Source of the DNA: a virus
Lineage: Duplodnaviria > Caudoviricetes
Reading direction: 5' to 3' (one strand)
IMG/VR virus record: IMGVR_UViG_3300032330_001252
Location: 1 to 64,000 of that record
Length of the DNA: 64,000 nucleotides
Shown here: positions 1-15,569 of the stretch, in pieces
Position numbering within the stretch: position 1 is the first letter of the stretch
Layout: every line of letters begins with the position of its first letter
The notes under the pieces: generated by a model
Database searches by the model: none
Told to the model about the DNA's origin: nothing
What the model saw: only the letters and a program-made list of their open reading frames with translations
Program-made: the position numbers and the translations under genes

Positions 1-192
1 GGAGTTTATGAGAAAAAAACTTATGTAAACAAGCGTGGCGAGCTGCCGGTGAAAAAATCCGAGCATATTGAACGCATTGCAGAGCTGTTGGACGTAAATT
101 CGGAAGTATTGGAAAGCTTGGAGAAGGTAAACAAGCAGGTACTTAAGTTAATTGAACTTAAATTGACCGAATCTGACCCTAAATCGGAATAA
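1..192 (+). CDS. A2-like DNA-binding protein, 3' part (5'-truncated by the window edge; not in the ORF track)
   Basis: Frame 1 reads GVYEKKTYVNKRGELPVKKSEHIERIAELLDVNSEVLESLEKVNKQVLKLIE...*. It aligns by eye with the C-terminal halves of the ORFs at 1089, 2134 and 6450 (VY..K..VKK...IA..L....SLEKAN). Confidence 0.8.
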   Translation, partial: GVYEKKTYVNKRGELPVKKSEHIERIAELLDVNSEVLESLEKVNKQVLKLIELKLTESDPKSE

Positions 193-255: not shown

Positions 256-305
256 GCGCGTGCGAACAATTGCTGCAGTTTAGGGTCAGAATCTAGAAAA
301 TCCAC

Positions 306-340
306 TTGACAAACTAGGTCCAGCACTGGTAAAATGGCGC
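306..340 (+). promoter_or_regulatory. sigma70-like promoter with 18-bp spacer (repeat module copy 1)
   Basis: TTGACA 306-311, TAAAAT 330-335, then GGCGC. Confidence 0.55.
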
Positions 341-375
341 AGGCACGTCCAAATTTTTCATGGTGATTCGCACAG

Positions 376-417
376 ACAAAACAAAGCCCCTGCGCACACA
401 TAGGTGGAGGGGCTTTG
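376..417 (-). terminator. Rho-independent terminator ending the leftward non-coding transcript
   Basis: CAAAGCCCCT/AGGGGCTTTG 10-bp stem, followed by UUUUGU on the minus strand. Confidence 0.7.
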
Positions 418-684
418 AACTGCGCTAGTTTTTTGCTCTAACAGGATTTATAGAACTACCAAACCTGACCCTAAACCGTCACAAGCCTTAGCCAGGTAGT
501 TAATCTGGAGTCTGCTATCGAGTAGGGGAGACTAATAGGTTGTCGCATTTGCTAGCGGTTTAATGCAGTTGTCTCTGGTTGGATATATTTTTTGCACCCT
601 CCGCAACTTAGGGTCATGTTCGTGGGGTATAGGCGTGACACGGTGCCTTGAACTAATATAGATACAACCGCCGTTGCATCGTGG

Positions 685-777
685 TCCAGACCTCCAGGTG
701 TTGCTAGTGGATATTAATCGAACACTAGCACCGCGCTCCTGGAAGTTTCGCCCAACTTGCATGGGCTCATCAGTGGA
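685..777 (-). ncRNA. Type I hammerhead ribozyme
   Basis: Minus strand reads UCCA-CUGAUGA-GCCCA(UGCAAGU)UGGGC-GAAA-CUUCCAGG...CCUGGAGG-UC/UGGA. All core nucleotides and stems I, II and III are present, with a GUC cleavage triplet and predicted cut between 689 and 688. Confidence 0.85.
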
Positions 778-860
778 ATAGGGAGGCGACCGCTAGAGAC
801 TTCCTCGGTCATTAAGATGCTATCCCTTAGGCGGGACTCATATCACCAATTTATATAATA

Positions 861-889
861 ATTATACACTAAAAGTGGACAATAATCAA
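861..889 (-). promoter_or_regulatory. sigma70 promoter driving the hammerhead-containing RNA
   Basis: TTGATT-17bp-TATAAT on the minus strand. Confidence 0.75.
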
Positions 890-892
890 GTA

Positions 893-1027
893 AATAAAAA
901 CAGTCGTTGCAACTAGACTACCTTACGAAATGGACTTCTGGTTTTTGTCAAGGGTTGAGTAAGTGTTCTTGTGCGTGCGGGCGGCAGCTTGCGCTGTCAT
1001 TCATTAAGCCCTTCCCGACTGTTTATA
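893..1027 (-). ncRNA. Putative structured small RNA (~130 nt)
   Basis: Begins at the predicted +1 of the 1033-1061 promoter. Its 5' and 3' ends pair (AAACAGUCG/CGACUGUUU), it contains an internal CAGC-GCAA-GCUG GNRA hairpin, and it has no ORF. Confidence 0.5.
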
Positions 1028-1032
1028 GAATA

Positions 1033-1061
1033 ATTATACATGAAAAAGGGTCAGTAATCAA
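1033..1061 (-). promoter_or_regulatory. sigma70 promoter
   Basis: TTGATT-17bp-TATAAT; the spacer contains the CTGACCCT repeat. Confidence 0.75.
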
Positions 1062-4651: not shown

Positions 4652-5128
4652 TTAATGCCCTTGTTTGCTTGGGACATATACGCCCCGAATATTAAAACGA
4701 TCACAAACCGCTTTCAAATAATTTACATTATCCTCATAAAATGTAAATTCAGCATCTTTGAAATTATTTAAATTAAAGAATTTAGTTAATCCATTAATTT
4801 TTAATGTACCGCCCGAAATAGAATCACCATCTTTGCGAGAAATAATATAATCGGGTTCGCCTAGAATATCATTAATAAATGTATAATCAGCGGTACGCAA
4901 AACACGGGCAGTAGCAATAATGACATAACAATTTTCATCTCGCAAATCTTTTTTATATTGTTCTGCAAGTGGCAATAATGAATCATCCATTGCCCTATAT
5001 TCATTTTCACGCCAATAACCCAAGTCGATACGCTCGCCATTGGAATCAATAATTGTGCGATAGCGATGCAAACTGCAAACGATTGTGCCGTCCATGTCAT
5101 AAATTGAAACCCTTGTAATTTTAGCCAT
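4652..5128 (-). CDS. HAD-superfamily phosphatase
   Basis: Motif I DMDGT, motif II ATAR, motif IV YEDN; AAGGAA RBS. Confidence 0.75.
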   Translation of the reverse strand: MAKITRVSIYDMDGTIVCSLHRYRTIIDSNGERIDLGYWRENEYRAMDDSLLPLAEQYKKDLRDENCYVIIATARVLRTADYTFINDILGEPDYIISRKDGDSISGGTLKINGLTKFFNLNNFKDAEFTFYEDNVNYLKAVCDRFNIRGVYVPSKQGH

Positions 5129-5243: not shown

Positions 5244-5330
5244 TTGACACGCCCCAATTTTATGTGATAAAATTGGCGCCTCAAAAAGTAATACATTTGT
5301 TTTCAATTTTTTCTGAAAACAAAAGTATTA
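5244..5330 (+). promoter_or_regulatory. Antisense promoter module copy 7, plus hairpin
   Basis: TTGACA-18-TAAAAT inside a dyad, then GGCGCC; 5284-5330 matches 3421-3467 at 45 of 47 nt. Confidence 0.7.
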
Positions 5331-5333
5331 AAT

Positions 5334-5495
5334 TTAATCAACCTGAATATCTACAATTTTGCTATCACGCAAAATAAAATACATATCAACCAAACCCATG
5401 CTAACCCAAACGCAATTATTGCCATTTCGCATAGCGTAAGGCTTACCCGAATATTTAGTATCCATGTAATTTTTTACAATGTCAAAATCAGTCAT
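5334..5495 (-). CDS. Hypothetical protein, 53 aa (not in the ORF track)
   Basis: MTDFDIVKNYMDTKYSGKPYAMRNGNNCVWVSMGLVDMYFILRDSKIVDIQVD*; ATGA overlap with the upstream stop. Confidence 0.6.
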   Translation of the reverse strand: MTDFDIVKNYMDTKYSGKPYAMRNGNNCVWVSMGLVDMYFILRDSKIVDIQVD

Positions 5496-5575
5496 TTTGT
5501 AAACCATTTCAAAAGTGAAATTTTAGCATAAACAAACACAGCAAAAGCAATCGCCCAAAAAATAAATTCTAGCAT
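5492..5575 (-). CDS. 27-aa single-TM peptide (not in the ORF track)
   Basis: MLEFIFWAIAFAVFVYAKISLLKWFTK*; GAGGA RBS. Confidence 0.55.
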   Translation of the reverse strand: MLEFIFWAIAFAVFVYAKISLLKWFTK

Positions 5576-5577
5576 TT

Positions 5578-5802
5578 TTAATCCTCAATCATTGGCAAAT
5601 CAGAACCCCAACCCTCAGCAATTTTTTGCTCAGGTGTCATATTATCAATGAATTTGCATAAACTGTCAAATTCTTTTTGCAAAAATTCTCTAGAATCCCA
5701 TTCTTGTTGGGTGAAGTGTCGGGGACGCATCCCATGCACATCTTTGTAAAAATCCCAAATTGTGGATTGCATTTGTTGAATTGTTGTAAATTCGTTAAAC
5801 AT
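5578..5802 (-). CDS. Hypothetical phage protein with a DFYKDVHGMRPR motif
   Basis: GAGGAA RBS places the start at MFNEF (5802); the motif type is common in phage hypotheticals. Confidence 0.65.
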   Translation of the reverse strand: MFNEFTTIQQMQSTIWDFYKDVHGMRPRHFTQQEWDSREFLQKEFDSLCKFIDNMTPEQKIAEGWGSDLPMIED

Positions 5803-5803
5803 T

Positions 5804-5929
5804 TTATTCCTCAGAAAAGAATTGTTCCAATGCGCCCATGTATTCAGCCATGTTTGCAAATTGCAAACCATGACGATCACAGAAGCGATGAAATCGGCTA
5901 ATTTGTTGTTCAGTGTATTTTGTTTTCAT
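5804..5929 (-). CDS. Hypothetical 41-aa protein, probably leaderless
   Basis: MKTKYTEQQISRFHRFCDRHGLQFANMAEYMGALEQFFSEE*; the ATG lies 7 nt after TATAAT of TTGACT-18-TATAAT (5936-5965). Confidence 0.55.
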   Translation of the reverse strand: MKTKYTEQQISRFHRFCDRHGLQFANMAEYMGALEQFFSEE

Positions 5930-5999
5930 GTGTTTATTATATCAAATTTTCAGCAAAAAAGTCAAGTGTGTAAAAATACAACATAGGGATAAACACCTA

Positions 6000-6056
6000 T
6001 TGACACGCTCCCAATTATACAAGTATAATTGGCGCCTGTTGCGTTTTCGCAACAGT
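6000..6056 (+). promoter_or_regulatory. Antisense promoter module copy 8, plus hairpin
   Basis: TTGACA-18-TATAAT inside a CCAATTATAC/GTATAATTGG dyad, then GGCGCC and a CTGTTGCG/CGCAACAG hairpin. Confidence 0.7.
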
Positions 6057-6065
6057 CTTTTGTTT

Positions 6066-6398
6066 TCAATTTTTGTCAACGCCCTTGATATAAATATCCT
6101 GCAAATCAAAGTATTCATTCATTTTTATAGCCCATTTTTTAAAATGTTTTCCGTGAATTTCAGCTTTAGAATTTTCTTCTTGCCATGCGTGAATAAGCTC
6201 ATGCGCTAACAAGACCTCAAAAGACCTACCAGACTCCCGAGTGTAAATTGTAATCCTATGCTCTAGCAGTTTGCCAGTCTTATCGGAATAGTGGGGCAAA
6301 TAAAGCCCATCATAGTGTTTATTTTTGCGTGTGTTTATACGCACAACAACAGGCTTTTTCAAGCCCAAAAATTTAGTGAAATCATTTAGTGTTTGCAT
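6066..6398 (-). CDS. SprT-like zinc metallopeptidase, probably leaderless
   Basis: HELIH plus HGKHF; ATG 7 nt after an extended -10 (TGcTATAAT). Confidence 0.65.
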   Translation of the reverse strand: MQTLNDFTKFLGLKKPVVVRINTRKNKHYDGLYLPHYSDKTGKLLEHRITIYTRESGRSFEVLLAHELIHAWQEENSKAEIHGKHFKKWAIKMNEYFDLQDIYIKGVDKN

Positions 6399-6414
6399 GA
6401 GTGTATTATAGCAC

Positions 6415-6443
6415 AAAAAAGAGTAGGGGCATAAAGCCCCTAC
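6415..6443 (-). terminator. Rho-independent terminator
   Basis: GTAGGGGC/GCCCCTAC stem plus U-run after the A2-like gene. Confidence 0.75.
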
Positions 6444-6449
6444 AATCTA

Positions 6450-6773
6450 TCAGGCTTTTTCAGCCTTGATAAATTCTGCAATCTTAGCGAGTGCAGTCTT
6501 ATTCGCTTTGGTCAGCGAATCAGCATCAGCCTCAGTCAAGCCCAATGCTTGAGCGATGAAGTCTGCGAATTCATCCTTCTTCACAACAGCTTCACCAGTC
6601 TTAGTGGTGTAAGTCTTAGCTACATAAACTTTCTCACGCGAAAGTTTAGCAACAACAGAGCGAACAGATTTACCCAAAGCCTCAGCGATGGATTCAACAG
6701 TTCTGCCAGCTTGGTAGTCGGCAACCATGCGAGCAGTTTGCTCGGCAGTATAGTTTACAGTTTTTGCAGTCAT
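6450..6773 (-). CDS. A2: T5 A2-like DNA-binding protein, paralog
   Basis: Closely similar by eye to 2134..2460; AGGAG RBS. Confidence 0.7.
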   Translation of the reverse strand: MTAKTVNYTAEQTARMVADYQAGRTVESIAEALGKSVRSVVAKLSREKVYVAKTYTTKTGEAVVKKDEFADFIAQALGLTEADADSLTKANKTALAKIAEFIKAEKA

Positions 6774-6819
6774 TTAAAAATCTCCTGAAAGGTCAAGGGT
6801 TGAAAGAAAGGTTATTATA

Positions 6820-6915
6820 TCATGGTTTCATGTTGTAAAGATAAAACCACAATGGGGCAAAGGTTATTGCAACAAAGAGTGTAGCTTGTGCTAGGTCAAT
6901 CATTAGTTGTTTCAT
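6820..6915 (-). CDS. 31-aa single-TM peptide (not in the ORF track)
   Basis: MKQLMIDLAQATLFVAITFAPLWFYLYNMKP*; AAGGAA RBS. Confidence 0.5.
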   Translation of the reverse strand: MKQLMIDLAQATLFVAITFAPLWFYLYNMKP

Positions 6916-7205
6916 AGTGTTCCTTGTCATCATGTGTTCTATTATACACGCAAAACAAAAGAAAAACAAGTGTGTGCATAAATACAACATAGGGATAAAT
7001 ACCTATTGACACGGGGGCATCACCTATGCTAGGGGCGGTTATTAGACCATAGTTTTGCCACACGCTACTGGACCCACCCACAGGCGGCCTATATGGGATT
7101 TTTTGGAAAGAGCTTACGGTGCGTATGAAATCCACGCACAGCGTGACCCTAAATTGCCCCAAAACACCCCAATTGCCCAAACCTACCCCCGCATAAAATT
7201 TCAAC

Positions 7206-7235
7206 TTGCCACACCGCCCCTAACCAGTATATAAT
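7206..7235 (+). promoter_or_regulatory. Late promoter upstream of terS
   Basis: TTGCCA-18-TATAAT followed by an AAGGA RBS. Confidence 0.55.
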
Positions 7236-7254
7236 TACACAAAAGGATACCACC

Positions 7255-7728
7255 ATGACTCAAAACCTACCTGCCGAAACTGTTCGAATTGCCCCGGAAG
7301 CACTAGAAGTAGCCAATTGCTACCTACAATTAAATGACCCACGTGCTGTCGCATCGGAACTTGATCTTGATGTTGAAACGGTCACCGAATACCTAAAACG
7401 CCGTGAGGTCAAGGCATATATTGATAGTGTATTTTTTGATTCAGGCTACAACAACCGATTTTTAATGCGACGTGCCATGGACGCCCTTATCAAGCAAAAG
7501 TTTCAAGAACTTGAGGAAGCTGGAGCCGGGTCGCAAAAAGACATTGCTGAACTACTTGCACTATCGCATAAAATGTCAATGGACTTGCTGGACAAAGAAA
7601 TTCAGTTAGAAAAGATTCGTAGTGGCACTGGACCACAAAAGCAAGTAAATGTGCAAATCAATGAGGGTCTAGATGGGTCAAAGTATTCTAAGCTTGTACA
7701 GCAATTGATTACCGGAGAAGGCATATGA
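7255..7728 (+). CDS. terS: Terminase small subunit (T5-like)
   Basis: 157 aa with an N-terminal HTH-like segment; size and position before terL as in T5. Confidence 0.7.
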   Translation: MTQNLPAETVRIAPEALEVANCYLQLNDPRAVASELDLDVETVTEYLKRREVKAYIDSVFFDSGYNNRFLMRRAMDALIKQKFQELEEAGAGSQKDIAELLALSHKMSMDLLDKEIQLEKIRSGTGPQKQVNVQINEGLDGSKYSKLVQQLITGEGI

Positions 7729-8009
7729 AAAAATTCTTAGTGCTAGTACTGTTATTTGCTTGTGTGTCAGCCAATGCACAACATCGTGCATACTATCCGC
7801 ACGGCTACTATCGCCCATACCATGACCACTTACATTGGGTTTTGCCAGCAGTTGTAGGCGGTGTAGTTGTTTATGAAATGACAAAACCACCAGTTATAGT
7901 GCAGCAGCCCGTAGTTATTCAACCACCCCTAGAACTTAACTGCTCCCCTTGGCGTGAAATACAAACCCCCGATGGTAAAATTTACCGCGAAAGAACCTGT
8001 ACCCAATAA
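7725..8009 (+). CDS. Secreted Pro/Val-rich hypothetical protein
   Basis: Signal peptide (MKKFLVLVLLFACVSANA), a second hydrophobic segment and a C-terminal Cys pair. Confidence 0.6.
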   Translation: MKKFLVLVLLFACVSANAQHRAYYPHGYYRPYHDHLHWVLPAVVGGVVVYEMTKPPVIVQQPVVIQPPLELNCSPWREIQTPDGKIYRERTCTQ

Positions 8010-9295
8010 TGCTAACTATTTCTCGCCCAGAAGTTGAGTGTGATGCAATTGTGGAGTTTAAGCCCACTGAGCGTTTTATTAAACTACCAATCGTCAACTA
8101 CCTAAAATTACTGGACATTTATGATACCATAAATCGTCCACAGGTTGCCTTAATCAACGCAGTCAATGACCCCAAGTACCGCTTTATTTGTGCCGCGCTA
8201 GCGCGTCGTTTAGGCAAAACCTACATAGCCAATATTATTGGCCAATTAGTGACCCTTGTGCCTGGGTCAAATGTATTAATCATGTCGCCCAACTATAACC
8301 TATCGGGAATTTCGTTTGAACTGCAACGCAGATTGATCAAACATTTTGACTTAGAAGTTGCACGTGATAACCTAAAAGACAAGATTATTGAATTAGAAAA
8401 TGGATCAACCATTCGCATGGGTTCGATTTCAACAGTTGACTCTTGCGTTGGCCGATCATATGACCTAATCATCTTTGACGAAGCTGCACTTGGTGATGAC
8501 GGTGAAGCAGCCTTTAACGTTGCGCTACGTCCCACACTTGACAAGCCCAATTCAAAGGCTATTTTTATTTCAACACCTCGCGGTCGCAACAATTGGTTCT
8601 CCAGCTTTTACAACCGTGGGTTTGATGACAACTTTCCTGAATGGGTATCGCTACAAGCCGACTACACAGAAAACACTCGCATGGCTGAATCCGATGTAGC
8701 AGAAGCACGCCGTGCTATGTCAAAGGCCGAATTTGAACAAGAATATCTTGCATCATTCACAGTGTTTGAGGGTCAAATTTATGCACTATCGGAAGCATCG
8801 GTTGAAACCATGCCAGAGTCGGTTCGCGGCGAAGCCATTGCTGGTTGCGATCCTGGATACCGCGATGCAACCGCATTTGTGGTAATTGTCTACGACTTTG
8901 CTGCAGACGTTTTCTGGATTGTGGATGAATACTTGGAAGCTGAACGTACTACTGCCCAACACGCAGCCGAGTTTCAACAGCTTTGTTCTCGCTGGGGTGT
9001 TGAGGTTATTTTTATTGACTCGGCCGCAGCACAATTTGCCAGCGACCTGGCTTATCAGTATGATTTGTCAACCACCAAAGCCAAAAAAGATGTGTTACCC
9101 GGAATCGCCTATGTGCAAACACTGGTAGCGCAAGGAAGGTTGAAGATTGCCCCACATTGCCAAAACGTACTGGCCATGTTTGATCAGTATCGCTGGGATC
9201 AGCGTGAGGGACTACAACGGGAACGCCCACTGCACGATGAATATTCGCACATGGCCGATGCTGTTAGATACGCACTTTATACGTACACAGTCTAG
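8009..9295 (+). CDS. terL: Terminase large subunit (T5-like)
   Basis: Walker A ARRLGKT, Walker B IIFDEAA, STPRG motif III, nuclease GCDPG and DAVRY. Confidence 0.95.
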   Translation: MLTISRPEVECDAIVEFKPTERFIKLPIVNYLKLLDIYDTINRPQVALINAVNDPKYRFICAALARRLGKTYIANIIGQLVTLVPGSNVLIMSPNYNLSGISFELQRRLIKHFDLEVARDNLKDKIIELENGSTIRMGSISTVDSCVGRSYDLIIFDEAALGDDGEAAFNVALRPTLDKPNSKAIFISTPRGRNNWFSSFYNRGFDDNFPEWVSLQADYTENTRMAESDVAEARRAMSKAEFEQEYLASFTVFEGQIYALSEASVETMPESVRGEAIAGCDPGYRDATAFVVIVYDFAADVFWIVDEYLEAERTTAQHAAEFQQLCSRWGVEVIFIDSAAAQFASDLAYQYDLSTTKAKKDVLPGIAYVQTLVAQGRLKIAPHCQNVLAMFDQYRWDQREGLQRERPLHDEYSHMADAVRYALYTYTV

Positions 9296-14079: not shown

Positions 14080-15569
14080 TGGCATTTTATACAGCAACTT
14101 GGTTTAAACAATTAATTAAAGAAGATCATGCTGCTGTACAAACTTACCTAAATAAAAAAGGTAACGATCTTCGAGGATATATAGATAGTACTCTACCATT
14201 TAGTTTATGGTTAGATATTGATACTATTAGAAAAAATATCTTACAGCCAAATGCTAAAGCCATAGAAGAACTATGCGCTTTATTAAATGTGCAAGACCCT
14301 AATGTTTTTATTAAAGAACTAGATAATGCATATCAAAAAACAATTACAGAATACATAGATACTTTCCCACATATAGATTCTAAAGAACTTGCTGCAAAAT
14401 TAGATACATTATCTGTAGCAATTGATCAGGGCGGTATTAAAGAAACTATACAAACATTGTTTAAACGAACAATGGTTGTAAAAGAACTTTCAAGAAAAAA
14501 TAAAAGTGTACTACTAATAGCTCCTAAATTTACAACTATACAAAGTGATTTTGGTAAACGAGTTAAATCTAATTTTAACTACGACGCATTTTCAGACTAC
14601 ATTGATGAACAGCTACAAGATAGCCCTAAAAATTTAGTTAGAAAATACTTAGAGAAAAACTTTGGAACATTACAGAACTTAGGGCATATTGAGGTTGATG
14701 TACTATCAGCAACCAAAGGTTCTTCAGAAGTTAAACGTGGACTAGTAAGTCCAAGACTTTTGCAAGCATTATTAGAGTGGCCTAATCAATCAAAACCTGA
14801 AACATTAGCTAGAAAATTTTCCAAAGAAACTGGACAGGCTGAGACTAGGGTAGTTATCCGCAAAAGATATACTAACAGTAAGTTAGTACTAGAGATGCTA
14901 GTAGAATCAGGATTAATGATTGGTTCTCTAGAAAGTCAACAAGAAAATTTAAAGAAAGCCGTTAAAGAACGTGCTTTTAAAATAGGTAGTGCTCTTAGTA
15001 GACGCCTAGTAGAAGACAAAAATTTATTACTAGACTTAGTAACTTCTAAGAGTATAAAACAATATACTGTAGATAGCGTACTAAATGGATTAAAAACAGG
15101 TAGACGTTCTGCTCGATATGAGAGTGAGACTGCAATAGTTCAAACTACTCCTGTCACTATTGAAAAATCTACAATAAATTTTGAAAAGAAAGATACTCCT
15201 TCTACCCAAGTACCCCAATTACAGACAGTTAAAGGAACTAAATACTCGCTAGTTAGTCTTAAAAATTTAATTAACAGTCAGCTACAGGATGTAATTAGTG
15301 CTAAGATGGGTGACGGCAGTAGTAAAAGTGTACTTAACTATAGAACTGGCAGATTTGCTGCTAGTGCTAAAGTAGAGGATATAACTTTAAGTAGAGATGG
15401 TATGATTACAGCATATTATAATTATATGCGCAATCCGTACGGTACATTTTCCACAGGCGGAAAACAAGAGATACCAAGATCACGAGACCCTAAACTACTA
15501 ATTTCCAGATCAATTCGAGAAATTGCTGCACAAAAGGTAGGAAATAGAATGAGAGCTGTATTGGTATGA
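14079..15569 (+). CDS. Tail completion protein (p143-like C-terminus) with a long N-terminal extension
   Basis: C-terminal RTGRF...Y.YM..PY...RDP motifs; position between p144-like and p142-like genes. Confidence 0.55.
   Translation: MAFYTATWFKQLIKEDHAAVQTYLNKKGNDLRGYIDSTLPFSLWLDIDTIRKNILQPNAKAIEELCALLNVQDPNVFIKELDNAYQKTITEYIDTFPHIDSKELAAKLDTLSVAIDQGGIKETIQTLFKRTMVVKELSRKNKSVLLIAPKFTTIQSDFGKRVKSNFNYDAFSDYIDEQLQDSPKNLVRKYLEKNFGTLQNLGHIEVDVLSATKGSSEVKRGLVSPRLLQALLEWPNQSKPETLARKFSKETGQAETRVVIRKRYTNSKLVLEMLVESGLMIGSLESQQENLKKAVKERAFKIGSALSRRLVEDKNLLLDLVTSKSIKQYTVDSVLNGLKTGRRSARYESETAIVQTTPVTIEKSTINFEKKDTPSTQVPQLQTVKGTKYSLVSLKNLINSQLQDVISAKMGDGSSKSVLNYRTGRFAASAKVEDITLSRDGMITAYYNYMRNPYGTFSTGGKQEIPRSRDPKLLISRSIREIAAQKVGNRMRAVLV

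Follow-up and report, generated by a model that had tools for sequence, protein, structure and literature searches.

Hammerheads are the best-known small ribozymes, with thousands catalogued and many of them in phages, and to our knowledge the biological roles of the phage examples are still mostly unknown. Both the class and its occurrence in phages are established (PMC3088659), and hammerheads have already been reported from phage early regions, the reported prophage examples mostly flanking protein genes, often as pairs or triplets (Perreault et al. 2011, PMC3088659). Ribozymes of another class, the HDV-like theta ribozymes, lie beside phage tRNAs and, according to one proposal, cut the 3' trailer off the tRNA (Kienbeck et al. 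2024, PMC10879173). The T5 terminal repeat contains a conserved 1.6-kb untranslated region that is rich in repeats (Davison, bioRxiv 10.1101/866236). Here we describe a hammerhead subfamily that is missed by Rfam and lies inside an uncatalogued non-coding RNA of an uncultured phage.

The window, i.e. the whole stretch of DNA analysed, covers positions 1 to 64,000 of an IMG/VR phage contig of 82 kb, a record estimated to be 78% complete. An initial annotation, made from the sequence alone, had placed a complete type I hammerhead at 685-777, and upon re-reading of the minus strand each of its coordinates and stems turned out to be exact. The elements are as follows, read from the sequence unless another basis is given:

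685-777, minus strand: type I hammerhead ribozyme, based on sequence, covariation, core invariance and a score of 84.7 bits with covariance model R1
777-774 / 688-685, minus strand: stem I, U777-A774 with U688-A685 (UCCA/UGGA), 4 bp
773-767, minus strand: core CUGAUGA
766-762 / 754-750, minus strand: stem II, G766-A762 with U754-C750 (GCCCA/UGGGC)
761-755, minus strand: loop II, UGCAAGU
749-746, minus strand: GAAA
746-738 / 698-690, minus strand: stem III, A746-U690 and C745-G738 with C698-G691, strands CUUCCAGG / CCUGGAGG
730-723 / 709-702, minus strand: inner hairpin UGCUAGUG...CACUAGCA of the 39-nt stem III insert
690-689, minus strand: UC preceding the 3' strand of stem I
689/688, minus strand: predicted self-cleavage site, 3' of C689 (C17 of GUC), from the hammerhead consensus

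The order is that of type I: the 5' strand of stem I leads into the core, the hairpins of stems II and III come next with GAAA between them, and UC joins the latter to the 3' strand of stem I. Stem I is open and carries the 5' and 3' ends, with stems II and III being closed by loops, which is the type I topology. The window contains CUGANGA, GAAA and a nucleotide other than G (H) at the cleavage position, and the core-adjacent pairs are all standard, namely G766-C750 (10.1-11.1), U688-A774 (1.1-2.1) and A746-U690 (15.1-16.1). The hammerhead consensus fixes the position of cleavage (Perreault 2011, PMC3088659), and as C17 corresponds to C689 the cut is predicted at 689/688, the position given by the initial annotation; the respective column reads GUC or GUA in all full-length relatives. 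The part of stem I that adjoins the core is short, with 4 bp here and 3-5 bp in the related ribozymes. Among relatives loop II keeps the pattern U-G-N-A-A-K-U, suggesting a tertiary contact with stem I, and inspection by eye of the 16 nt flanking stem I revealed no covarying partner of the loop. Two further helices were considered and rejected: a distal extension of stem I (GUCGCC/GGCGGU), spotted by eye in the window, lacks conservation and competes with a covarying upstream hairpin, Pb (see below), and no covariation backs a closing helix in which the 5' GGGU would pair with the ACCC of stem I.

Related loci, designated by L numbers, were fetched via homologues of the neighbouring 102-aa protein (1089-1397), which resembles A2 of phage T5 (see below). 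A simple motif scan detected the same ribozyme in about 45 loci of the fetched sets. The covariance model built in this analysis, R1, was run on 80 related phage loci and identified one ribozyme copy in 64 of them. In every case the ribozyme lies downstream of the A2-like gene and shares its strand, and in all but four loci it starts some 300-1000 nt past the end of that gene; the 82-kb record of the window likewise holds a single copy. Alignment of 33 distinct hand-picked copies gave 89.6% paired cells and changes on both sides in 13 of 18 stem pairs, and 56 distinct model-aligned sequences gave 89.8% and 14 of 18. None of 500 shuffles matched the observed covariation in either alignment, and slid pairing registers were only 22-46% paired (24-46% in the 33-copy alignment alone). 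Compensatory changes affect all three helices (stem I, 4 of 4 pairs; stem II, 3-4 of 5; stem III, 6 of 9). Stem II occurs as GCCCA, GCACA, GCUGA, GCCUA, GCCGA, GCAUA, GCUAG, GCCAG, GCUGG and GCUC, each with its complement, and stem I varies from CCU/AGG to CCA/UGG and CUAU/AUAG. The core CUGA[U/C]GA...GAAA is near-invariant across distinct relatives, with the sequence of stem II being free to vary, and one stem III pair is U-G in 11 of the 33 sequences; such G-U pairs fit only the minus strand as RNA. The strong covariation, together with one conserved copy in 64 of 80 loci, excludes a chance match, and the covariation in related phages that the initial annotation had named as a check is present. 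The motif is a real and probably active hammerhead and forms a new subfamily of the known class.

No viral contig matched an exact-core pattern containing the window's own stem II and start of stem III, and a looser pattern of the subfamily matched 42 stretches in viral contigs, nearly all on contigs of the fetched locus set. The looser pattern also gave four matches in genome contigs, two being short phage fragments binned into MAGs and the other two chance occurrences within high-GC coding sequence, so that they provide no clue to the host. A nucleotide search of cultured phages with window positions 300-1000 gave no match, and neither T5 nor two Vibrio Demerecviridae were matched by R1.

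Next, we consider the curated hammerhead models of Rfam (RF00163, RF00008, RF02275-7 and RF03152). The initial annotation had looked to them for confirmation, which they did not provide: at gathering thresholds the whole 64-kb window contains no hammerhead match, and in a permissive search of 350-950 two matches appeared, both below threshold. RF03152 (RAGATH-1 hammerhead) matches exactly 685-777 with 17.1 bits (gathering 56.3; E 3.8), and RF00008 (Hammerhead_3) matches 740-805 with 31.9 bits, the best value obtained (gathering 48.5; E 6e-5 in a 601-nt search). The relatives gave no Rfam hammerhead match even at E 5. The ribozyme is missed because of a stem III insert of 39-55 nt, and the miss is a failure of the database models on this long insert, not of the class definition. 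The low score of RF03152 and the unmatched 5' half of its model show that the ribozyme is not a member of RAGATH-1. Taken at face value, the RF00008 match would describe a type III hammerhead at 805-740 that cuts at 798/797, in which GGAAGU (804-799) is able to pair with ACUUCC (746-741). This register reuses the same core and pairs GAAACUUCC with the upstream GGAAGUC. Its score lies under the gathering threshold, its stem I would consist of the single pair U797-A774 followed by C-C, violating the rule of Perreault 2011 (PMC3088659), the upstream GGAAGUC is not conserved (GGAAUGC in L105) and belongs to the loop of hairpin Pb, which covaries, and the sequences of stem III are not the same. The one-pair stem I and the unconserved upstream segment within the loop of a conserved hairpin identify the match as an artefact, and we regard the type III reading as scarcely credible.

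The type I hammerhead lies within a putative transcription unit, the elements of which are:

861-889, minus strand: sigma-70-type promoter TTGATT-17-TATAAT with a TG-extended -10, from a promoter scan
782-846, minus strand: 5' module, consisting of hairpin Pa (837-822), linker CUUAAU, hairpin Pb (810-788, GACCG/CGGUC) and GCC
466-616, minus strand: 3' domain, some 150 nt long, with a predicted long-range helix of 13 bp (616-604 / 478-466) closing it
372-416, minus strand: intrinsic terminator, a 9-bp stem (416-408/391-383) followed by UUUGUUUUGU

The promoter scan recovered the promoter proposed by the initial annotation, and relatives have the same promoter block ahead of their ribozymes. The promoter belongs to a 45-nt repeat family of early promoters, with a further copy at 1022-1066. 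Transcription would start near position 853. The terminator has a large loop of 16 nt, which is why the terminator scan did not call it; stem and U-tract are visible, as proposed before, and their position corresponds to that of the clear terminators of relatives, most of which have a GC-rich hairpin with a U-run 100-750 nt after the ribozyme. Most relatives also have a promoter upstream, located about 80-460 nt before the modelled ribozyme stretch. The resulting unit of about 480 nt and the predicted products of 165 nt and about 313 nt agree with the sizes given in the initial annotation.

Further transcription signals surround this unit. A near-duplicate promoter at 1061-1033 on the minus strand, just upstream of the promoter of the ribozyme RNA, would drive a short unit (893-1061, minus strand) with an 18-codon ORF and a weak hairpin/U-run, which is conserved in L083. 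Perfect promoters (TTGACA-18-TATAAT) are present on the plus strand, opposite the leftward early genes, at 306-335 (with TAAAAT), 1687, 1962, 2639 and 3380. From the one at 306-335, transcription would run into the ribozyme RNA's terminator and give rise to an antisense RNA, and the arrangement of a plus-strand promoter after the terminator is conserved in relatives.

Outside the ribozyme Rfam recognised no family in the RNA, and the full RNAs of two relatives yielded weak terminator-like noise only. Hairpins Pa and Pb show compensatory changes in 10 of 14 predicted pairs (RNAalifold, 18 relatives) and also appear in the single-sequence fold of the window RNA. The long-range helix is part of both the minimum-free-energy and the centroid fold and is formed by one GACCCUAA copy and one UUAGGGUC copy of a local repeat; in relatives the C and S copies of this repeat are complementary over 10-16 nt, with an A-U to G-C exchange. 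Inside the 3' domain conserved blocks (about 615-535) contain small hairpins, and one block is 90% identical to that of a distant relative, L130, over 81 nt. Thus, there is conservation and there are covarying helices outside the ribozyme, in line with the functional RNA that had been postulated. For the isolated 5' piece an alternative pairing is predicted between the 5' end of the RNA and CACUGAU (the end of stem I and the core CUGAU), which could slow down folding of the ribozyme.

No conserved ORF was found when a 76-aa ORF (532-762) and four smaller ORFs were tested across the RNA, as the initial annotation had stated, and no protein family matched these ORFs. The 76-aa ORF, which overlaps the motif and starts inside loop II, gave only fragmentary matches that are alike on both strands and mirror the conserved nucleotide blocks. 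A coding reading of the region was consequently rejected on the basis of these both-strand matches and the lack of a family match.

The RNA family is modular, with relatives gaining and losing blocks, their RNAs measuring about 0.4 to 1 kb and the ribozyme being the constant element. A strictly conserved 20-nt block, AAAUACAGCUAUCAUCUAAC, is present in the 3' domain of many related RNAs (L083, L085, L122, L128; for example 5843-5862 of L083) and is missing from the shorter RNA of the window. Loci L138-L147 (about 5638-5790) have a short stem II, GCUC/GAGC, and a terminator hairpin directly after the hammerhead, and cleavage would merely take the terminator off a longer upstream RNA there. The position of the ribozyme within the RNA thus differs by clade, so that there is no single functional piece common to all relatives.

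We consider it likely, with a probability of roughly 80%, that the window encodes a functional self-cleaving hammerhead which splits a dedicated non-coding RNA into pieces of 165 nt and about 313 nt. According to this model, positions 853-372 of the minus strand are the gene for a structured RNA of about 480 nt of an uncultured T5-like siphovirus, which host RNA polymerase would transcribe from the sigma-70-type promoter to the intrinsic terminator. Upon folding of stems I-III the 2'-OH of C689 would attack the adjacent phosphate, cutting the transcript in two. The 165-nt 5' piece would contain the Pa/Pb module and the ribozyme body and end in a 2',3'-cyclic phosphate, and the 3' piece of about 313 nt would start with a 5'-OH and contain the long-range-helix domain and the terminator. 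The RNA would be made early, with cleavage being constitutive and in cis, and the cut would serve maturation by separating two functional RNA domains. The new ends may be handled poorly by the host's 5'-monophosphate-dependent RNase E and 3' exonucleases, and we prefer domain separation together with nuclease-resistant ends as the purpose of cleavage. The initial annotation had also suggested self-cleavage at injection and a role as RNA ligase substrate or as decoy for a host defence protein, and none of these ideas gained support. RtcB was not found in the 82-kb record, 78% complete by estimate, nor was a convincing RNA ligase, the candidate being a 318-aa ORF with an RNA_ligase score of 16.6 bits, below the cut-off (72918-73199 of the record), and a neighbouring gene that had appeared to be PNK-like is Dmp-like.

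This neighbour, encoded at 4652-5128 on the minus strand, is a protein of 158 aa with 38% identity to the N-terminal part of T5 Dmp over 85 aa (E 2e-15), which explains it better than its PHROGs label as polynucleotide kinase (phrog_415). Dmp is the pre-early deoxynucleoside-5'-monophosphatase of T5. The 102-aa neighbour and its paralogues match phrog_323 and phrog_1725, which are D5-like regulator / DNA-binding-protein families:

1089-1397, 2134-2460 and 6450-6773, minus strand: A2-like small HTH paralogues (phrog_1725 / phrog_323)
1-192, plus strand: A2-like small HTH paralogue (phrog_1725 / phrog_323)

The paralogues align weakly, end to end, with T5 A2, and a protein search of cultured phages with the A2-like protein gave no match. 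The closest relative, L083, also has four A2-like copies. The Dmp-like and A2-like neighbours place the locus among homologues of T5 pre-early genes: dmp and A2 homologues adjoin it, and the TerL of the phage is about 50% identical to that of Demerecviridae (T5-like) vibriophages. Early expression of the RNA is therefore plausible, given its host-type promoter and these neighbouring genes. In one relative, the 100-kb contig IMGVR_UViG_3300043436_004120, the RNA locus is present at both ends (L205, 1-1557, and L190, 85419-100412), the two copies being 90% identical over 698 nt and 100% identical over 127 nt, and many related contigs stop close to the RNA locus, too. Both observations suggest that the locus is part of a terminal repeat or borders on one.

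One might go further and view the ribozyme-cut RNA as a pre-early effector of T5-like infection, which would be among the first products of the first-transferred DNA and whose pieces, with protected ends and arms made of the 16-nt repeat that pervades the untranslated zone around it (see below), would act together with the A2-like DNA-binding proteins or against a host RNA-sensing defence. We hold this to be quite improbable; if true, it would tie a catalytic RNA to the unexplained untranslated region of the 'injection-stop' type in T5-like phages.

Some relatives carry a tRNA next to the ribozyme. In 11 related loci tRNA-Glu(UUC) ends 6-10 nt before the ribozyme, and in two more the distance is 83-101 nt (L114, L122). 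The tRNA-Glu(UUC) directly upstream of the hammerhead has an encoded CCA in L109, L111-L113, L116, L129, L131, L136 and L137. In L116 the T-loop of this tRNA is unusual (AUCGUUA); ARAGORN calls the tRNA, but the Rfam tRNA model is silent at E 0.1 and 5. The ribozyme could accordingly be a processing device of a tRNA or RNA operon that ancestrally severed a tRNA-Glu precursor from a downstream RNA, the phage of the window having lost the tRNA and kept the ribozyme. The ribozymes of the tRNA-bearing loci are highly diverse, scoring between 41 and 111 bits, and ribozyme-assisted 3' processing of phage tRNAs has been postulated for theta ribozymes (PMC10879173), both of which agree with such a role. 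However, no tRNA is present anywhere in the window, most relatives lack a tRNA near the ribozyme, and the tRNA-less loci hold a different conserved covarying module, Pa/Pb, at the same place. Moreover, a type I hammerhead cuts some 90 nt beyond the 3' end of the tRNA and hence cannot make the mature CCA end. As the main role of the ribozyme we thus find tRNA processing unlikely; the tRNA-linked relatives do suggest precursor processing as a role of the cut, in place of or in addition to the separation of domains.

The non-coding left end of the window also contains a repeat family:

166-194, 268-293, 458-479, 604-616, 1047-1082 and 7145-7152, both orientations: copies of tGCAGTTTAGGGTCAGg or its complement, a repeat about 16 nt long

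The non-coding copies are clustered around the RNA, in the window as in relatives (L083-L138, around 5300-8900). The promoter at 1061-1033 has one inverted pair on either side of its -35, and the terminator of the rightward gene ending at 192 lies between the two copies of another pair, 287-280 / 182-175. The motif TTAGGGTC has 13 copies in the window compared with 1.2 expected. Copies of GACCCTAA lie in ORFs at 14295, 15486, 30456, 59545, 62299 and 63415, on the sense strand and in frame (Asp-Pro-Asn/Lys); as all six copies inside listed ORFs read GAC CCT AAx, the coding enrichment is a codon or peptide effect and not a nucleic-acid signal.

In most relatives the substrate strand of the ribozyme is itself a copy of the repeat, UUAGGGUC/AGG with the cut in between, and a second copy, usually followed by AGG, is located near the 3' end of the same RNA. 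Together with the excess of TTAGGGTC, this arrangement would fit a guide-like hammerhead that also cuts other copies of the 16-nt repeat (..GCAGUUUAGGGUCAGG..), in trans or at an alternative site of the same RNA, or an on/off switch in which GACCCUAA segments compete for the substrate strand. In the window and in L083, however, both arms have changed (CUUCCAGG/CCUGGAGG and UCCA/UGGA) and the distal copy is still UUUAGGGUCAGG, showing that the ribozyme arms do not track the repeat, and the arms of L105 mismatch their distal copy at two positions. Elsewhere in the window, targets of the window's own arms occur at chance level (8 matches with up to 3 mismatches, 6.7 expected), most other copies of the repeat lack the AGG needed for stem I, and the six ORF-internal copies are explained by codons. 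As arms and repeats do not covary, cleavage in trans or at several TTAGGGTC repeats was rejected, and we rate this reading, including the switch, as highly unlikely. A likelier role of the repeat is to provide arms for helices (stem III and the long-range helix), protein sites on the DNA, or both.

A further reading is that the locus acts mainly as DNA, either as a repeat zone resembling the T5 injection-stop region or as a set of operators for A2-like proteins, with the hammerhead fold being unused as RNA or catalytically dead. The repeats occur in both orientations and bracket a -35 element or flank terminators, the T5 terminal repeat has a conserved untranslated region of 1.6 kb that is rich in repeats (bioRxiv 10.1101/866236), and the locus at both ends of one relative's contig is what a terminal repeat would give. 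Selection on RNA is nevertheless indicated by compensatory changes that preserve the helices while their sequence varies, by G-U pairs that fit one strand only, by the invariance of the catalytic core and by a promoter and a terminator that match each other; DNA repeats and an RNA gene can coexist. A function at the DNA level in place of the RNA is very unlikely in our view.

The reading that we prefer is a probable self-cleaving RNA gene. It adds a subfamily that is invisible to curated models owing to its long stem III insert, and it places a hammerhead in a dedicated non-coding RNA that runs from promoter to terminator, not between protein genes. In this uncultured T5-like clade the ribozyme is the most conserved element of an RNA locus beside dmp and A2 homologues, hinting that in some lineages RNAs may be encoded by the puzzling untranslated zones at the termini of T5-like genomes. 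Being short, with a host-type promoter and a single predicted cut, the RNA offers a simple system in which to study the purpose of ribozyme processing in a phage RNA; if it is merely processed and stable, without a phenotype, it will be an ordinary new example of a hammerhead.

Among the known systems the iss region of T5 shares the setting, as it is likewise conserved, repeat-rich, free of ORFs and located beside the pre-early genes dmp and A2, and the accessible part of its description mentions no RNA product (bioRxiv 10.1101/866236). Gene order and orientation differ between T5 and the window, and T5 has no match to the ribozyme model. Theta ribozymes resemble the arrangement in 11 relatives in that a small self-cleaving ribozyme lies directly 3' of a phage tRNA; they differ in belonging to another ribozyme class, the hammerhead cuts about 90 nt further on, and the window has no tRNA. 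With the RAGATH-1 hammerhead (RF03152) the ribozyme has in common the stem assignment over 685-777, an open stem I and a long stem III, whereas the 5' half of that model is unmatched and the score is far below gathering. The type I hammerheads (RF00163, clan CL00010) and the set of PMC3088659 have the identical core C3 U4 G5 A6 N7 G8 A9 and G12 A13 A14, the same A15.1-U16.1, C17 and G10.1-C11.1 pair, and likewise a three-way junction with stem I open. Compared with these, the present subfamily stands out by a stem III insert of 39-55 nt with a hairpin of its own, and unlike the prophage hammerheads of PMC3088659 the ribozyme of the window is single and situated inside a dedicated non-coding RNA.
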